From the NCBI GenBank assembly GCA_041389865.1, contig JAWKRA010000004.1, positions 50,307-114,306 of the forward strand: a DNA stretch of 64,000 nucleotides. Reading direction: 5' to 3'. The DNA comes from Nannocystaceae bacterium. GTDB taxonomy: Bacteria; Myxococcota_A; Polyangia; Nannocystales; Nannocystaceae. The notes beneath the pieces are model-generated. The model had not been told where the DNA came from. It worked only from the letters and a program-made list of their open reading frames with translations, and did no database searches. Both the position numbers and the translations under genes were made by a program. This document shows positions 1,990 through 26,061 of the stretch, piece after piece; the first letter of the stretch is position 1; each line of letters opens with the position of its first letter.

Positions 1990-3249
1990 CTACTTCTTAG
2001 GTAGCCTACAGTGAGCACGACCCCGCGCGCACCGACCGGGTGGCGCCGCAGACGTCGACTGTGCTGCGACGATGCTCTCCCCCATCGACTCGACGGCATC
2101 CCGAAGCACACGATCCGACAAGTGCGCGTAGCGAGCCGTCATCCGCGTCGAGGAATGCCCGAGAATCTTGGCCACGACCTCCAGCGACACCCCGGCCATC
2201 AGCGCGTCGCTGGCCGCCGAGTGGCGGAGGTCGTGCAGGCGAACGTCATGGAGCCGCGCGAGATCGCGGATTCCATACCACGTCCTCGTGAGCGCCGCGC
2301 CGTGCATGGGTTGCCCCGTCTGCGTGTGGATAACCCAGGGGACATCTGTATGCCGACGGCTTCGTAGATCTTCAAGCAGCGCGATCGCGTGCGACGACAC
2401 GGGGACGACGCGTTGCCCCGTCTTGGAATCGGGGAGCCGCAGGCAGCGGTGACGCGCGTCGACCATCGACCACTGCAACGAGAGCACCTCGTTGCGGCGC
2501 ATCCCGGTCAGCGCCAGGAGCCGGATCGCTGCGACAGAGTTCCAGCCGAACGAACCCCTGTGACCCGGGGGGGCGGTTTCCGCTTCCCGCAGCACGCGCT
2601 CAAGTCGGGCGCGCTCCTCGGGGGTCAGGAAGCGCTCACGGCTGCGCTCGCGGTAGAAGCGAACAGTTCGGGTCGGGCGCGGATGATCCCTTGGCAGGAC
2701 CTGCCAGTCGATCGCCTTCGTGTACATGTGCGAGAGGACGCGGATCATGTTGTTGGCGGTGACGGCCTTCGTCGACATCGTTGCGTGAAGCCGCTCGACA
2801 TCGACAGGAGTGATCTGATCGAGCGGCAAACCGCCAAGCGTGGGCAGGAGGTGCGCGCGGAGCTGGTAGCGGTAGCGGTCGGCGGTCGATGGCTTGACGC
2901 CGTGGCTGATGTGGTCGCGGTCGTACCGCTCGGCGAACTCGGCGAACGTGGGTACGGCTTTCGCTCGATGAGCCTCGCGAGGGAGCTCGAGCGGCGGCGC
3001 TGCGGGTGTCACGAGGACTCCCTCGAGGATCTCCATCGCCTTCGCTCGCGCCTGGCTGCAGGTCATCCGTTCGGCCGAGCCGATGCGCACCCGGACATCG
3101 CGGCCGTTTGGTCGATGGCGAGCGATGTAGATCTTGCGACCGCTCGGGAGCACCCGGAGGACGAACCCACGGACGGCGTCGCAGGTGATCTCGTACTTGC
3201 TGACGCGCGGTCGTGCTCGCTTGACGGTGATGTCGTTGAGGACAGGCAT
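1990..3249 (-). CDS. int: Tyrosine recombinase / phage-type integrase
   Basis: C-terminal catalytic domain carries the R, H-x-x-R, H and Y motifs (RRNEVLSLQW, HDLRHSAASD, LGHSSTRMTARYAH). The start is the ATG MPVLNDITVKRARP, consistent with the N-terminal arm-binding region. Confidence 0.9.
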   Translation of the reverse strand: MPVLNDITVKRARPRVSKYEITCDAVRGFVLRVLPSGRKIYIARHRPNGRDVRVRIGSAERMTCSQARAKAMEILEGVLVTPAAPPLELPREAHRAKAVPTFAEFAERYDRDHISHGVKPSTADRYRYQLRAHLLPTLGGLPLDQITPVDVERLHATMSTKAVTANNMIRVLSHMYTKAIDWQVLPRDHPRPTRTVRFYRERSRERFLTPEERARLERVLREAETAPPGHRGSFGWNSVAAIRLLALTGMRRNEVLSLQWSMVDARHRCLRLPDSKTGQRVVPVSSHAIALLEDLRSRRHTDVPWVIHTQTGQPMHGAALTRTWYGIRDLARLHDVRLHDLRHSAASDALMAGVSLEVVAKILGHSSTRMTARYAHLSDRVLRDAVESMGESIVAAQSTSAAPPGRCARGRAHCRLPKK

Positions 3250-3298
3250 GGCTCGATTCCGATCGATCCGTATTCGATCCAAACCGGCGCCACAATGA

Positions 3299-5800
3299 CA
3301 TGTCTCAAGAGACACAATGTCGAGAATTTTCAGGAATTTGACCGATTTTGCGCGTGACTTCCGAACCGACAACGTGATGATCGGCGACGACGGGCGCGTG
3401 CGCGTGATGGACTTCGGGCTGGCGCGAAGCCCCGGCGAGCTGAGCACGGCCGGCGACGTGACGCTCGAGAGCGACGGCCCGCCGAGCTCGAGCGCGGAGA
3501 GCACGGACACGCGACTGCTGAGCCAACCCCTGACCCGCACCGGCACGCTGCTCGGGACCCCCGCGTACATGTCGCCCGAGCAGTGCGCAGGGCGGCCCAC
3601 CGACGCTCGCAGCGATCAATTCAGCTTCTGCGTGAGCCTGTTCGAGGCGCTCTACAAGCAGCGCCCGTTCCCGTGCACGTCGATCGCCGAGCGCCTGCAC
3701 GCGATCGAGACGGGCACGGTCGCCGCGGTGACGCACGCCGGGGTGCCGAGCCGGCTGCATCGCGCGCTGCTCCGCGGCCTCGCGCGCGCTCCCGAAGATC
3801 GCTGGCCGTCGATGGACGCGCTGCTCGCCGCGCTCAGCGACGAGCCGGAGAAGCGCTGGCGACGGCGAGCCGCCGGCGCGCTGGCGACGGCGGTCGTCGG
3901 GGGCGGCGCGCTCACGCTCGCGCTCACGCTGAGCAGCGCCGCCGGGCAGGTCTGCGCGGGGATGGAGAAGCACGTCCAGGAGGTGTGGGGCCCCGACCAG
4001 CGCGCCGAGGTCCGCGCGGCGATCGAGCGCACTGGGCTCAGCTACGCGGCGGAGACGTGGTCGCGGATCGAGGGCGGCCTCGACGACTACACCGAGCGCT
4101 GGGTCGCGGCCCGCGTCGACGCCTGCGAGGCGACCCACAGCGGCGAGCAGTCCGAGCGGCTCCTCGATCTGCGGATGACCTGTCTCGATGAACACCTCGG
4201 TCAAGTCCAGGCCACGGTGCAGCTGCTGCGCGAGGCGGACGCGGACGCGGTCGAGCACGCGGCCGACGCCCTCGCCAAGCTGCCGGCGCTCGATCGCTGC
4301 GCCGACGCGGCGGCGCTCTCCGCCGAGGTCCCGCCGCCCGCAGACCCCGAGGTCGCACGGCGCGTCGCGGAGCTCACCAGCATGTTCGTCGACGCCGAGG
4401 TGCTCGCGCGCGTGACGAAGTACAGCGAGGCCCTCGAGCTCGTCGGGGCGGTGGCGAGCGAGGCGAGCGCGCTTGACTACGCGCCGCTCGAGCTCCGCGC
4501 GCGGCTGCTCGAGGGGGAGCTCCAGCGCCAGACAGGCGAGCACGCGCTGGCCGAGGCGACGTTCGAGCGCGCCTACGACGGCGCGCTGCGTCGCGGGATG
4601 ATCCCCGAGGCCGCCCGCGCAGCGATCGAGATCACCGTGCTCCTCGGCACCAACCTCGCGCGCCCCGAGGACAGCGCGGGCTGGGCCAGACACGCCGAGC
4701 TGCTGAGCGAGGCTGACGGGCGGGAGGTCGCCCAATCCCGCTTCCTCCGCTACCGCGGGCTCGTGAGCACCGCGCAGGGTGACTACGCTGCAGCCTACGC
4801 GGACTACGAGCGCGCGCTTGCGATGAGCGAGCGTATGTACGGGCCCGATCACCCCGCGGTCGCGACCGCGTTGAACAACCTCGGGAACGCGTGCCAGAAG
4901 CTGGGGCGCTTCGACGAGGCGCTCGGCTACAACGAGCGCGCGCTGGTCATCGACGAGCGCACCCACGGCCCGGGTCACCCGTTCACCGCGACGTCCTTGT
5001 TCAACCTGGGCACCGTGGCCAAGGCCAAGGGCGATCTCGACGCGGCCGCGCGCTTCCACGAGCGCGCGCTGGCGATCCGCGAGCGCGCCCTCGGACCCGA
5101 GCACCCCGACGTCGGCGGATCGCACAACAGCCTCGGCTCGATCGCCAAGCGCCGCGGCGATCTCGACGCGGCCCAACAGCACTACCTGCGCGCGCTGAGC
5201 ATCTTCGAATCGCACTTCGGCGGCGATCACCCCTACGTCGCGGGCGCGCTGACCAACCTCGGCTCCGCGGCCCGGAAGCTGGGGAATCTCGAGCAGGCCC
5301 GCGCGTACCTCGAGCGCGCGCTCGAGATCTCCGAGCGTCGCCTCGGTCCCGATCACCCCAACCTGGGCATCACGCTGTCGAGCCTCGGCGAGCTCGCGCT
5401 CGCGGAGGGCGACTACCCACGCGCCCGCGCGCGCTTCGAGCAGACGCTCGCGCTGTTTGAGCGCTCGCTGGGTCCCGAGCACGCTGCGGTGGCGGACACC
5501 GCGACGAACCTCGGCGTGGCGCTCCTGCACCTCGGCGACCCGAGCGCGGCGCTCGTGCACCTCGAGCGGGCCATGGAGATTCGGGCCAAGACCGAGTCAG
5601 CGCCCGACGCCGCGGCGGAGACCCAGTTTCGCCTGGCGCAAGCGCTGTGGGACGCGCGGCCGACCGGCGCCGATCGTCGACGCGCGCTCGAGCTCGCGGA
5701 GAAGGCCGACGCCGACGCCGTCGCCAGCGGCGTCAAGGATGAGCTGCGGGCGGAGATCGAGGCGTGGCGCGCCGCGAGGTCGACCACGCGCGATCGCTGA
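3299..5800 (+). pseudogene. 5'-truncated Ser/Thr protein kinase fused to a TM segment and TPR_12-type repeats
   Basis: Frame opens at 3299 directly after a stop. The first residues are kinase subdomain VIb onward (DFRTDNVMIGDDGRVRVMDFGLAR, GTPAYMSPEQ), with no Gly-loop, Lys or Glu N-lobe. A TM stretch and repeated TPR units follow (NLGN..G..D.A....RAL.I.E...GP.HP). The gene abuts the integrase start. Confidence 0.55.
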
Positions 5801-21262: not shown

Positions 21263-21514
21263 GTGGAGGCGGTGTCTGGAGATTGCATGGAGGTCGCCGG
21301 GGTTCTCGTCATGCAGCCCACCTCGCTCGATCCAAATCCAACGGCCGGCTCTGCGCGCGCCGTGTCCATCCTGGCCCGCTCGCTGTTCCGGCAGATGCGC
21401 GAGCAGGGGTATTCGGCGGCCGAGATCATTGGGCTCTCCTCCGAGCTCCTTGATCTGGTCTCCTCCGACCTCAAGCGCGATCGGACGCAGGCCCTCGCCG
21501 ACGCCGCCGAGTGA
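21263..21514 (+). CDS. Small hypothetical protein upstream of pgk
   Basis: 83-aa ORF (or 67 aa from MQPTSL) with a helix-turn-helix-like stretch GYSAAEIIGLSSELLDLV. Confidence 0.3.
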   Translation: MEAVSGDCMEVAGVLVMQPTSLDPNPTAGSARAVSILARSLFRQMREQGYSAAEIIGLSSELLDLVSSDLKRDRTQALADAAE

Positions 21515-21587
21515 GCCCCGAAAGCTCACGTCTGCGGCTGCCACCGCGCGTGGACTTGCAGCCGTGACGTGAGTATTGCTGCCCGCC

Positions 21588-22820
21588 ATGGTGGTCTCGG
21601 AGCCCGCGCTGCCGCGCCTTGAGGCGCTCGACGTCGACAACCGACGCGTGTTCGTACGCGTCGACTTCAACGTCCCCATCACCAAGTCCGGCCTGGTCCG
21701 CGACGACACCCGCATCCGGGCCGCGCTCCCGACCCTGCGCTTGTTGCGGGACCGGGACGCCAAGCTGATCCTCGCCTCGCACCTCGGTCGACCCAAGGGG
21801 CCTGACCCGCGGCTCTCGCTCGAGCCGGTCGCGGCGCGGCTCGCCGAACTGCTCGACACCGAGGTCCGCCTGCCGGACGAAGTCGTCGGCGACGGGGTCC
21901 GCAAGCTGGTGCTCGACACCCGCGCGGGACAGGTCATCCTGCTCGAGAACCTCCGCTTTCACCCCGGCGAGACCAAGAACGATCCGGCCTTCGCGGCCGC
22001 GCTCGCGGCCCTCGCAGACATCTACGTCAACGACGCGTTCGGCGCGAGCCACCGCGCCCACGCCTCGGTCGTCGGCGTTCCCGGGCTGCTCCACGAGCGC
22101 GCCCCCGGGCTCCTGCTCCGCGCCGAGATCGAGGCGCTGCGTCGCGTGGTCCACGATCCCGAGCGTCCGTTCGCGGCCATCGTCGGCGGCGCGAAGGTCT
22201 CCGACAAGCTGCCCGTGCTCCACGCCCTGGTCGATCGCTTGGTCGCCGGCGACCGCCTGCTCATCGGCGGGGCCATGGCCAACACCTTCCTCGCCGCCTC
22301 GGGGATGGCGATCGGCGCCTCGCTGCACGAGCCCGATCAGTTCTCCGCGTGCGTCAACCTCCTCGCCCGCGCCCGCGCCCGCGACGTCAGGATCCAGCTG
22401 CCCGTCGACGTCCGCGTCGGCGCCAGCGTCCAGGCCGACCACGCGCGCGTGGTCCCGGCGGGACCCGAGGCCCACGGCCTCGCCGACAACGAGCTCGCCC
22501 TCGACATCGGCCCCCACACGGCGGCCGCGTTCGCCCGCGCCATCGCCGACGCCCGCACCGTGTTCTGGAACGGCCCGATGGGCCTGTTCGAAAACCCGGC
22601 GTTCGCCGAGGGCACCCTCGACCTCGCCCGCGCGGTCGCCGAGTGCCCGGGCTTTACGGTGGTCGGCGGGGGCGACAGCGTCGCGGCCGTCCAGGAGAGC
22701 GGCGTCGCCGAGCACATCAACCACATCTCCACCGGCGGCGGCGCGGCCCTCGAGATGATCGAGGGCAAGATCCTGCCAGGGGTCGCGGCGCTCTACCCAT
22801 CGGAGCCGCGGGGTGCCTGA
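21588..22820 (+). CDS. pgk: Phosphoglycerate kinase
   Basis: RVDFNVP, ASHLGRPKG and GGGDS motifs across a full-length ~410-aa protein. Confidence 0.95.
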   Translation: MVVSEPALPRLEALDVDNRRVFVRVDFNVPITKSGLVRDDTRIRAALPTLRLLRDRDAKLILASHLGRPKGPDPRLSLEPVAARLAELLDTEVRLPDEVVGDGVRKLVLDTRAGQVILLENLRFHPGETKNDPAFAAALAALADIYVNDAFGASHRAHASVVGVPGLLHERAPGLLLRAEIEALRRVVHDPERPFAAIVGGAKVSDKLPVLHALVDRLVAGDRLLIGGAMANTFLAASGMAIGASLHEPDQFSACVNLLARARARDVRIQLPVDVRVGASVQADHARVVPAGPEAHGLADNELALDIGPHTAAAFARAIADARTVFWNGPMGLFENPAFAEGTLDLARAVAECPGFTVVGGGDSVAAVQESGVAEHINHISTGGGAALEMIEGKILPGVAALYPSEPRGA

Positions 22821-23616
22821 CAGCAACGGCCCCAGACGCAAGCGCTGGGTCATCGGCAACTTCTCGCAGCACCTCCTGCGAACCCAGGCCGAAGAGCACG
22901 TCACCGAGCTGATCCGCGGCCTCCCGCCCGAGGTCCTCGACGCCGACGAGCTGCGGATCGGCGTCGCCCCCAGCTTCCTGGCGCTCGAGACCTGCCGACC
23001 GTGGGCGCGCCCGGCGGGGCCGCTGGTGCTGCTGGCCCAGAACGCGAGCGGTGTTGAGACGGGCCCGTTCACCGGCGAGATCGGCCCCGGTATGCTCGCC
23101 GATGTCGGCGCCCATGGCGCGCTCATCGGCCATTGGCACCGCCGCGTCCACTTTCGCGAGTCGAACACCCAGATCGCAAGCAAGCTCCAGGGCCTGCTCG
23201 AGGCCGGCATGCACGTCGCGCTCTGCGTCGGCGACCCGCCCGAGACCCGCGAGAGTCGAAATCACGAAAACCACGTAATTTCGCAGCTTTCGACCGCATT
23301 TCTTAATGTAGATTCTGCGTTCGTTTGCGGGCGCCTCGTGATCGTCTATCAGCCCGTCTGGGCCCTCGCCCACGACCGGCCCACGCGCCCCGAGCAGGCG
23401 GCCCACATGCACCGTCGCATCCGCAGCTGGATGGGCGAGCGCTTCGGCGATGCCGGTCGCGGCAGATCGATCCTCCACGGTGGTACCGTGGGACCCGATC
23501 AGATCGGCGCCCTCCTCGGCTCAGGCGAGGTCGACGGGTTCCTGCTCGAGGCCCCGTCGCTTGACGTGAGCGCATTCCTCGATATCGTCCGGGCCATGGC
23601 CCCCGCTCGGCCCTGA
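22813..23616 (+). CDS. tpiA: Triosephosphate isomerase homolog with substituted catalytic residues
   Basis: TIM-barrel collinearity (AQN, GPFTGEI, IGH, PVWA, ILHGGTV). GNWKMN reads GNFSQH (K12 to S). GHSERR reads GHWHRR (E97 to H). YEPVWAIGTG reads YQPVWALAHD (E165 to Q). Start overlaps the pgk stop. Confidence 0.8.
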   Translation: MPDSNGPRRKRWVIGNFSQHLLRTQAEEHVTELIRGLPPEVLDADELRIGVAPSFLALETCRPWARPAGPLVLLAQNASGVETGPFTGEIGPGMLADVGAHGALIGHWHRRVHFRESNTQIASKLQGLLEAGMHVALCVGDPPETRESRNHENHVISQLSTAFLNVDSAFVCGRLVIVYQPVWALAHDRPTRPEQAAHMHRRIRSWMGERFGDAGRGRSILHGGTVGPDQIGALLGSGEVDGFLLEAPSLDVSAFLDIVRAMAPARP

Positions 23617-23623
23617 AGCGACC

Positions 23624-24172
23624 ATGTTCGACATCCTCGTCACCATCGTCACGATCATCTTCACCATCGTCAGCCTGATCATGGTGCTCGTGATCCTCCT
23701 GCAGGCCGGCAAGGGCGGCATGGGCACGGCCCTCGGCGGCGGCGCGAGCCAGAGCGTGTTCGGCGGCGGCGGCGGGGCGGATGTCCTGGCCAAAGCCACC
23801 CAGGGCATGGCCGCGACCTTCATGATCTGCTCGATCTTCCTCGCCTACGCGAGCTCGCACAGCGAATCGAGCCGCCTCAAGGACAAGAGCGAGGACCTCG
23901 AGGAGGAGGCTGGCCTGCTCGATGAGGACGCGCCGATTGACTACGAGAAGCTCGGCAACTACCTCGAGCTCCCCGAGGGTCCGATCCCTGACGCCTCCGC
24001 CGCGCCTCCGCCCATCGAGGAGACGAGCCCCGAGCCGCCTGCCGACGAAGCCCCTCCCGAGGACGGCGGCGAGCCGATCGCGGCGCCTTCGCTCGACGGC
24101 GTCGCCGAGCTGCCAGCCGAGGACACGGGCCCGCCCGATACGCTGGTCCCGGGCGACGCCGAAGAGCCCTAG
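23624..24172 (+). CDS. secG: Preprotein translocase subunit SecG with a long acidic C-terminal extension
   Basis: Two TM helices flank the Gly-rich loop (LLQAGKGGMGTALGGGASQSVFGGGGG). It sits in the canonical pgk–tpi–secG position. The 100-aa D/E/P-rich tail is non-canonical. Confidence 0.8.
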   Translation: MFDILVTIVTIIFTIVSLIMVLVILLQAGKGGMGTALGGGASQSVFGGGGGADVLAKATQGMAATFMICSIFLAYASSHSESSRLKDKSEDLEEEAGLLDEDAPIDYEKLGNYLELPEGPIPDASAAPPPIEETSPEPPADEAPPEDGGEPIAAPSLDGVAELPAEDTGPPDTLVPGDAEEP

Positions 24173-24204
24173 CCCGGACTTCTCACCCCGGGCTCGCCGC
24201 GCGC

Positions 24205-25011
<807 letters not shown>

Positions 25012-25101
25012 GCGCGCTCCGGCGCCACGGGACAGGTCCTAAGGACCATGTGGAGCGGCGCAGCCCTGGAAAGAAGCGCGTGGCGCCGGTCCCAGGGTGT
25101 G

Positions 25102-26061
25102 ATGTCTGGATCCGTGCGCGCACTCATCGTCCTTGTAGCCCTGTCCCTTGGTTCCTGTGGTGACAAGGGCGCGGAAACGAGCACCGGGACCGAGACCGAC
25201 GGCGAGACGACCGCCGGACCGACGTCGTCGACGACGCTGACGAGCTCGGACTCGTCGGATCCGACGACGACGAGCGACCCGAGCACCACGGCGCCCGAGA
25301 CCACCGATCCCTCGGGCACCGAGACCGGCACCGACACCGGCACCACCGACACCGACGCGACTGACACCGACACCGACACCGACGCGACCACCGACGGCCT
25401 CGGCTGCAAGCCGATCGACTGCGGCGGCAAGATCTACGAGTGCGGCGACTGCCTCGACAACGACGACGACGGCCTCGTCGACTTCGCCGACCCCGAGTGC
25501 ATCAGCCCGTGCGACGACAAGGAGGCGACCTTCGCCACCGGCCTGCCCGGCGACAACATGGACGCCTGCAACCAGGACTGCTTCTTCGACGGCAACAGCG
25601 GCAGCGGCGACGACAAGTGCGTGTGGAACCTGAAGTGCGACATGAACAACCCGGGCGGCGACGACTGCCCCTACGACCCTGACTTCAAGAACTGCCCCGA
25701 AGAGCAGGACGCCATGTGCACCGAGAGCTGCCAGGTGCCCAACGGCTGCGACTGCTTCGGCTGCTGCACCGTGCTCTACATGGGCATGAACGTCGACATC
25801 TACATCGGCGACGAGGACTGCTCGCTCTCCGAGATCGAGCTGTGCCAGACCTGCACCAAGAACGAGGACTGCGACGACGACTGCGACCCCGAGATGTGCG
25901 AGGTCTGCTTCGGCCAGGACCCCGACGACCTCCCGCCCGAGTGCGACGGCGGCGAGTGTGAGGAGGGCAAGCAGGCGTGTGAGGTCGACGCCATGGGCGG
26001 CAGCGACTGCCCCGACGGCTTCTTCTGCTTCGTCGGCTGCTGCGAGCAGATCATCGGCTGA
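25102..26061 (+). CDS. Cys-rich secreted lipoprotein with a Thr/Asp-rich linker
   Basis: Lipobox [11 protein letters not shown]-rich low-complexity linker, then about 30 Cys in C-x-x-C and CC contexts. Start taken at MSGSVRAL. Confidence 0.6.

Follow-up and report, generated by a model that had tools for sequence, protein, structure and literature searches.

A vertically inherited low-GC patch in a catalytically degenerate tpi-like gene of a Nannocystaceae bacterium, possibly an mRNA-level cis element of tpiA

The DNA analysed here, referred to as the window, is a stretch of 64,000 nucleotides (nt) from a Nannocystaceae bacterium (contig JAWKRA010000004.1, positions 50,307 to 114,306), and the feature of interest is a short low-GC patch inside an open reading frame (ORF) that resembles a triosephosphate isomerase (TIM) gene and occupies the place of tpiA between pgk and secG. 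As judged from aligned orthologues, the patch is native, vertically inherited tpiA coding sequence and not imported DNA. Its AT-richness may be an inherited, selectively maintained property of tpiA in a Nannocystaceae-related clade, reflecting a cis element that acts at the mRNA level, a reading that is given an even chance of being correct. The patch, its host gene and the two neighbouring genes are arranged as follows.

21576-22820, forward strand: pgk, the upstream gene of the conserved cluster (Pfam PGK, E = 9e-143; synteny).
22813-23616, forward strand: tpi-like ORF of 267 aa, orthologous to tpiA by position; it starts with GTG, overlapping the stop codon of pgk, and is catalytically degenerate.
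23248-23331, forward strand: low-GC patch, codons 146-173, encoding RESRNHENHVISQLSTAFLNVDSAFVCG (helix alpha5 and the alpha5-beta6 loop); GC 0.476 overall and 0.57, 0.39 and 0.46 at the first, second and third codon positions (GC1, GC2 and GC3).
23624-24172, forward strand: secG (Pfam SecG), beginning 8 nt past tpi and followed by dapF.

The order small ORF-pgk-tpi-secG-dapF is conserved across the loci of relatives, and the window ORF has the sequence of the TIM family (Pfam TIM, PF00121, E = 2.5e-49, 168 bits) together with its (beta/alpha)8 fold, the AlphaFold2 model having a predicted local distance difference test score (pLDDT) of 90.6 and Foldseek template modelling scores of 0.87-0.93 against solved TIMs. 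The features of a functional TpiA, namely the catalytic Lys, His and Glu together with loops 6, 7 and 8, are not present as a set. The motif NWK reads NFS (Lys to Ser), YEPVWAIGTG reads YQPVWALAHD (Glu to Gln) and GHSERR reads GHWHRR with the catalytic His retained, while the phosphate-binding loops have changed from AIGTG to ALAHD (loop 6), from YGGS to HGGT (loop 7) and from GGAS to EAPS (loop 8). The canonical motifs were found in the alignment in all 15 close relatives and in E. coli TpiA, and in 8 further representatives that were inspected. All NCBIfam TIM equivalog models score the ORF under their curated cut-offs (for example TIGR00419, 100.7 against 130.6).

The protein is also divergent: its nearest matches are Nannocystaceae/Polyangia TIMs at 43-53% identity, and clustering of 1.8 billion representatives at 50% identity gives it a cluster of its own. 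Its identity to the TIMs of relatives is 47-51%, while their PGK proteins are 67-71% identical to the window PGK; canonical pairs at equal PGK distance share 56-66% TIM identity. Among 98 clade-invariant residues, 35 are lost from the window TIM, and all seven that lie in the core of the patch are kept. No second TIM occurs within the 64 kb window, a search whose scope was the window alone, and a literature search on TIM pseudoenzymes and on internal promoters of tpiA or secG returned nothing relevant. By its predicted active site, the ORF is a catalytically dead TIM with a confident TIM barrel in the canonical pgk-tpiA-secG slot, which poses the question of how the organism interconverts triose phosphates.

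The original prediction described an AT-rich patch within a 72%-GC gene. The patch is present, as 81 nt of 45.7% GC at 23250-23330, and the gene comes near that figure, at 68.9% GC overall and 71.4% without the patch; the coordinates first given, 23237-23320 (50.0% GC), lie about 12 nt too far to the left. The frame and peptide (residues 144-170) had been read correctly. The patch had also been assigned to the loop 6/helix alpha5 region just before the mutated catalytic Glu, and of this the loop 6 part fails: in the AlphaFold2 model the patch falls on helix alpha5 (151-162), with the end of a short helix (143-147) on one side and the alpha5-beta6 loop on the other, and it does precede the mutated residue, Gln180, which follows it by 7 residues. 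The lowest 84-nt window, at 23243-23326, has 45.2% GC and is flanked by 100-nt blocks of 69% and 73%; the 64 kb mean is 70.8% (standard deviation 5.6% for 84-nt windows), and windows of 84 nt that are equally low make up just 0.17% of the total.

The reported shift to A/T third positions is confirmed, with a GC3 of 0.46 in codons 146-173 against 0.89 in the remainder of the gene and A/T-ending codons at 15/28 positions in the patch against 27/239 elsewhere (Fisher p = 7e-7). GC falls by 0.24, of which about 0.08, or one third, is due to amino-acid make-up and the remainder to codon choice. In 100,000 re-codings of the patch peptide that followed local codon usage (that of pgk, secG, dapF and the remainder of tpi), the expected GC3 was 0.94 and the minimum 0.68, and the observed 0.46 was never reached, which rules out amino-acid composition as the sole cause. 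Other "coding" windows of low GC3, from a crude stop-to-stop ORF call, were overlapping or long alternative-frame ORFs and were judged to be artefacts without annotation of those genes.

For comparison, orthologous DNA was gathered by a genome scan (locus L001), by exact-protein look-ups (L083-L088 and L170-L173) and by a metagenome scan (L090-L109) seeded with a sub-alignment of the clade-specific segment; a single-protein scan of genome contigs gave no close relative, and a full-alignment scan was swamped by generic TIMs and gave one clade locus only. The main comparison comprises 17 distinct aligned tpiA genes of the Nannocystaceae-like clade, whose proteins are only 45-60% identical. The codon alignment runs unbroken and without an indel through the patch, and the peptide HExxVISQLS is conserved across the orthologues. 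The lowest 27-codon GC3 window overlaps the patch codons in 15/17 clade genes, the two exceptions having their minimum at codons 199-225, and the mean clade profile falls to 0.645 at codons 145-171 (gene mean 0.855, standard deviation 0.07). In the neighbouring genes of the same loci the GC3 minimum is 0.84 (pgk) and 0.80 (dapF). The difference in GC3 between the rest of the gene and the patch is 0.15-0.23 in the clade against 0.03 in high-GC TIMs from outside it, and the window dip is the deepest of the series. A rare-codon cluster at a conserved position is accordingly a property found within the clade and not outside it. First and second codon positions are shifted as well, from 0.623 GC in the rest of the gene to 0.558 in the patch, whereas outside the clade the shift is in the opposite direction, from 0.566 to 0.646 (Mann-Whitney p = 1e-10), so that the pressure appears to act on base composition and sequence and not on synonymous choice alone.

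These observations bear directly on the two origins originally proposed, recombination with foreign DNA or a nucleic-acid-level element within the coding sequence. In the orthologues the same aligned codons form a low-GC3 segment whose peptide is conserved and which has no indel or breakpoint, and this is the very outcome that had been named in advance as speaking against recombination. An embedded nucleic-acid-level element is supported as a class, by invariant synonymous sites, by a dip that is clade-specific and absent from pgk and dapF, and by the AT-shift at positions 1 and 2.

The invariant synonymous sites fall into a core within the patch and a second cluster further downstream.

23263-23268, forward strand: CAC GAA, the upstream part of the invariant core; GAA is fixed in 17/17 aligned clade genes.
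23281-23291, forward strand: invariant 11-mer TCGCAGCTTTC (codons 157-160, TCG CAG CTT TC), identical in 17/17 distinct clade genes.
23464-23487, forward strand: second cluster of fixed non-preferred codons, conserved in the clade, in beta7/loop 7, codons 218-225 (AGA TCG ATC CTC CAC GGT GGT ACC).

The core CAY GAA ... TCG CAG CTT TC, with CAY GAA 12 nt upstream of TCGCAGCTTTC, is common to all 17 clade genes; GAA, TCG and CTT are each 17/17, and GAA is also present in 22/22 rows of a larger alignment of all loci, some rows of which are duplicates. In pooled codon usage, Glu is GAG in 80% of cases and Leu is CTT in 8%, mostly from the codon-159 column itself. Neighbouring synonymous sites (GTN, ATY and codons 153-154) vary freely, indicating that the sequences are not merely too similar to differ. 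Columns of conserved residues that favour A/T-ending codons number 5/120 in tpiA, 1/232 (weak) in pgk and 0/120 in dapF, and the five in tpiA form two clusters, GAA152 with CTT159 and AGA218 with GGT223 and GGT224. In the second cluster the clade has AGA in 15/17 genes, AGR and GGT GGT in 17/17, and AGY for the Ser that follows; the window gene retains AGA, GGT and GGT. High-GC TIMs from outside the clade use CTG or CTC at the Leu column and GGC and CGN at the columns of the second cluster.

The 11-mer occurs once in the window and, in the fetched loci, only within tpiA, with no further copy of it or of the arrangement GAAAGC...GCTTTC in either. More distant members show how the parts of the feature may come apart. 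L172 and L104 retain CGCAGCTTTC despite Ser-to-Ala and Ser-to-Thr changes, and L172 keeps both the 11-mer and the dip; L171 has lost the 11-mer and kept GAA and the dip (0.56 against 0.82); and L170 has neither core nor dip (GAG ... CTC, patch GC3 0.93), yet keeps AGA and GGT GGT.

Two independent metagenome contigs in ENA (L081 and L082) carry the window gene with 6 nucleotide differences. Five of the six are synonymous (p = 0.005 against neutrality), and the window ORF for this reason still appears to be under purifying selection. The 82-nt stretch 23250-23331 contains four of them (binomial p = 0.0014), each a transition, and where the orthologues give a clear polarity the change is GC-to-AT; L081 and L082 themselves have CAA for the otherwise invariant CAG of the 11-mer. 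By this comparison the patch is locally fast-changing in the window lineage, recent changes pushing it further toward AT, and the clustering suggests local hypermutation or a short recombination tract. As a separate observation, L081 (positions 995-1696, against window 23760-24200) matches the window at ~99% identity from the 3' end of pgk across tpi into the 5' end of secG and then diverges sharply within secG, either as a mosaic (recombination) or as a chimeric assembly.

Of the explanations weighed, a cis element acting at the mRNA level ranks first, pacing of translation by rare codons second, a DNA-level site and a functionless mutational effect after these, and foreign DNA last. The first of these starts from three features taken together, the invariance of the synonymous sites, the clade-specificity of the dip and the shift at positions 1 and 2, from which it would follow that the constraint acts on nucleotides. 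It may act on the sense mRNA, through an AU-rich, weakly structured tract that contains a recognised core and, in most of the clade, also a small A-U-rich hairpin (CGAAAGC/GCUUUCG), and the whole could serve as a cis signal on the pgk-tpiA-secG transcript, such as a processing, decay or pause site. The window lineage would then have added A/T-ending codons and recent GC-to-AT changes atop the ancestral feature, and its deeper dip may stem from reduced protein constraint once the catalytic role was lost. The structures predicted in the patch are as follows.

23265-23292, forward strand: candidate small hairpin CGAAAGC, 14 nt, GCUUUCG; the window 5' arm, CGAAAAC, has one mismatch.
23255-23294, forward strand: window-specific inverted repeats CGAAATCACG/CGTAATTTCG (23257-66 / 23274-83) and GTCGAAA/TTTCGAC (23255-61 / 23288-94); the 91-nt fold has -27.9 kcal/mol, z -2.3.

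The predicted hairpin pairs the A of GAA with the last U of CUU, that is, both fixed synonymous sites. When folded as isolated 33-nt segments, 11/17 sequences form the full stem (z -2 to -4.2), and the stem tolerates U-G in 4 sequences, as expected of sense-strand RNA. The whole-gene consensus fold keeps the hairpin, and the most unpaired 30 nt of the gene lie directly downstream of it (23298-23327). Across the arms, in-register pairing is seen in 85.7% of cells, compared with 25-50% after sliding, the helix having been read off these same sequences. In the window itself the hairpin is weak (-4.1 kcal/mol, z -1.2), with AAC instead of AGC.

Several results weigh against this account, and above all against its hairpin. 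The hairpin is partial in three sequences and unused in two (L093 and L096), and several of the 17 genes have no 5' arm though the 3' arm is invariant; no distal GAAAGC partner was found for the genes that lack the local one. Covariation was not detected (216-242 of 500 shuffles reached the observed value), no consensus structure came out of local RNAalifold, and the compensating pair GAG...CTC, made of preferred codons, never occurs within an intact stem. An Rfam 15 scan of 21400-25200 with E up to 10 returned chance matches at the level of miRNAs and snoRNAs only, none of them in the patch. The second codon cluster (AGA, GGT GGT) is not explained by the hairpin, L173 keeps the core without a regional dip, so that core and dip are partly separable, and conservation counts such as 17/17 ignore the kinship of the 17 genes, which are phylogenetically related. 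Other structural candidates were rejected: a second helix of the window and L085 (alignment columns 16-25 with 33-42) is not clade-conserved, being 61.8% paired and no better than shuffles; long-range pairing of the patch with the second codon cluster, compared by eye, comes to a 5-nt GATC-based match only; and a +1 slip at CUU_U leads, also by eye, to stops at non-conserved distances.

Pacing by a conserved rare-codon cluster is rather unlikely, though it is the best placed of the competing explanations. Ribosomes would be slowed at codons ~146-171 and 218-225, pacing the co-translational folding of the barrel, with a first pause at about the time when beta1-beta4 had emerged and a second when beta1-beta6 had. 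Every fixed odd codon (GAA, CTT, AGA, GGT, GGT) is non-preferred, which allows one principle to cover both clusters; the region keeps its rarity even though single rare codons shift position; and the moderate-GC member L001 is also rare there, with a relative adaptiveness of 0.59 in the patch against 0.72 in the rest. Conservation of such clusters at specific positions within domains is documented (Chaney et al. 2017, PMC5438181). However, codon identity is itself fixed in tpiA, Leu never being CTA, TTA or TTG, Gly never GGA and Arg never CGA or CGT. GAA has a cognate tRNA to decode it and should not be slow, which counts further against pacing, as do the AT-shift at positions 1 and 2, which codon rarity alone does not predict, and the absence of the dip from other high-GC TIMs with the same fold.

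A site acting at the DNA level, such as an operator, a site for a nucleoid protein or an unconventional promoter (of secG or of an antisense RNA) that depends on the easily melted AT-rich tract, is improbable. The arrangement of the genes leaves room for it: secG abuts tpiA in all relatives, mostly 2-15 nt past the tpiA stop and in the remainder within ~40 nt (e.g. L001, L083-L088), so that control specific to secG has to be located inside tpiA. An 11-mer that does not vary suggests recognition of a particular sequence, the centres of the half-sites GAAAGC/GCTTTC are separated by 21 bp, or two helical turns, and an AT-shift at all three codon positions fits a constraint on DNA composition. A scan for sigma-70-like -35/-10 pairs (16-18 nt spacing, either strand) and for terminators nevertheless found none in the window patch, the orthologue patches gave one loose 8/12 match only, in L001, and parS, cre, sigma-54 and extracytoplasmic-function (ECF)-type consensus sequences, compared by eye, did not fit. 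Further copies of the motif are absent from the window and the loci, so that there is no regulon-like set, and, read as antisense RNA or as DNA, the stem would have A-C mismatches where U-G pairs are tolerated. Moreover, a better conserved promoter-like site lies outside the patch and is the better candidate for a secG promoter.

23561-23588, forward strand: sigma-70-like site TTGACG-16-TATCGT inside tpi near its 3' end, ~36 nt before secG, with the same hexamers in the same codons in L001, L087 and L109.

No Shine-Dalgarno sequence is obvious at the tpi/secG junctions (window 23616-23626 and relatives; e.g. TAGCCATG), which suggests that initiation is coupled or Shine-Dalgarno-independent.

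An effect without function is held to be equally improbable. Here a melted stretch would gain C-to-T and G-to-A changes by local mutation under relaxed selection, amplified in a decaying dead gene, consistent with the bias of the differences from L081 and L082 (4/6 in the patch, all transitions, the clearly polarised ones GC-to-AT) and with the deepest dip occurring where the active site has been lost. It does not explain the invariant synonymous sites across 17 or more divergent genes or the dip in catalytically intact orthologues; the remainder of the dead gene keeps its GC3 of 0.89, and the excess of synonymous differences indicates that the ORF is not freely decaying. Finally, a short, lower-GC foreign tract recombined into the gene is very improbable, for while the abrupt step from 69% to 46% to 73% GC and a cluster of differences that could mark a short conversion tract between strains are in keeping with it, the patch is homologous to its orthologues residue by residue and shares their dip, its clade-specific peptide and nucleotide core are intact, its edges show no indel, repeat or mobile-element signature, and BLASTN of the patch alone found no match in 72,556 plasmids or 50,697 phages, the donors that were searched.

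Taken further, the mRNA-level reading leads to a more specific and doubtful proposal, in which the helix-alpha5 codons of the whole clade would contain an undescribed cis-acting element composed of an AU-rich tract, the invariant core CGCAGCUUUC and a hairpin. Such an element would constrain both codons and peptide, and the dead ORF might persist, at least in part, because it carries a signal for the operon, such as a processing or pause site setting secG and dapF expression. If functional, it would be a compact, testable case of a coding sequence with a second message, able to outlast the catalytic function of its enzyme. Codon-optimising tpiA from these organisms would remove the feature.

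Only three regions of the 64 kb are at or below 50% GC: the patch and the stretches 3-220 and 3244-3393. Within the first of the other two, at 49-155, are five direct copies of TTGACCTTTCGGACA with alternating 24/21-nt spacing in a stretch of ~40% GC, upstream of the ORFs 202-591 and 495-1733 (no Pfam match), an array that resembles iterons or an operator array. The third (down to 43% GC) lies at the 5' end of the ORF 3317-5800, whose product lacks the N-lobe of a Ser/Thr kinase and has the C-lobe alone (positions 122-207 of 263 in the Pkinase profile), followed by a long TPR array.

Intragenic compositional anomalies in GC-rich genomes are usually taken as imports, and the tpiA patch appears instead to reflect an inherited constraint on synonymous and non-synonymous sites in a gene of core glycolysis. 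With AT-rich xenogeneic DNA and the spurious intragenic promoters described in GC-rich genomes (PMC3923964, PMC8476142) it shares an AT-rich stretch within a gene of a GC-rich genome, but it spans only ~80 bp, is vertically inherited and homologous to its orthologues, and carries no promoter consensus. The rare-codon clusters of Chaney et al. 2017 (PMC5438181) likewise place non-preferred codons at the same aligned position, inside a domain and between secondary-structure motifs, whereas tpiA fixes specific codons, shifts non-synonymous positions toward AT, and does so in one clade only, similar-GC TIMs being without the feature. The host ORF resembles canonical bacterial TpiA (PF00121) in TIM fold, TIM length and pgk-tpiA-secG position, and differs from it in the replaced catalytic Lys and Glu, in the phosphate-gripping loops 6, 7 and 8 and in scoring below all NCBIfam equivalog cut-offs. 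Synonymous-constraint elements are cis-acting RNA structures or signals embedded in coding sequence. The tpiA patch differs from these in having no covariation, Rfam family or known function and in a signal that is partly compositional (AU-richness), and it resembles them in the local suppression of synonymous change, in a possible hairpin and in the unusual conservation of a peptide in a normally variable surface helix. The patch would in this respect be a known kind of feature, a synonymous-constraint or rare-codon element, noticeable for sitting in a catalytically dead TIM.

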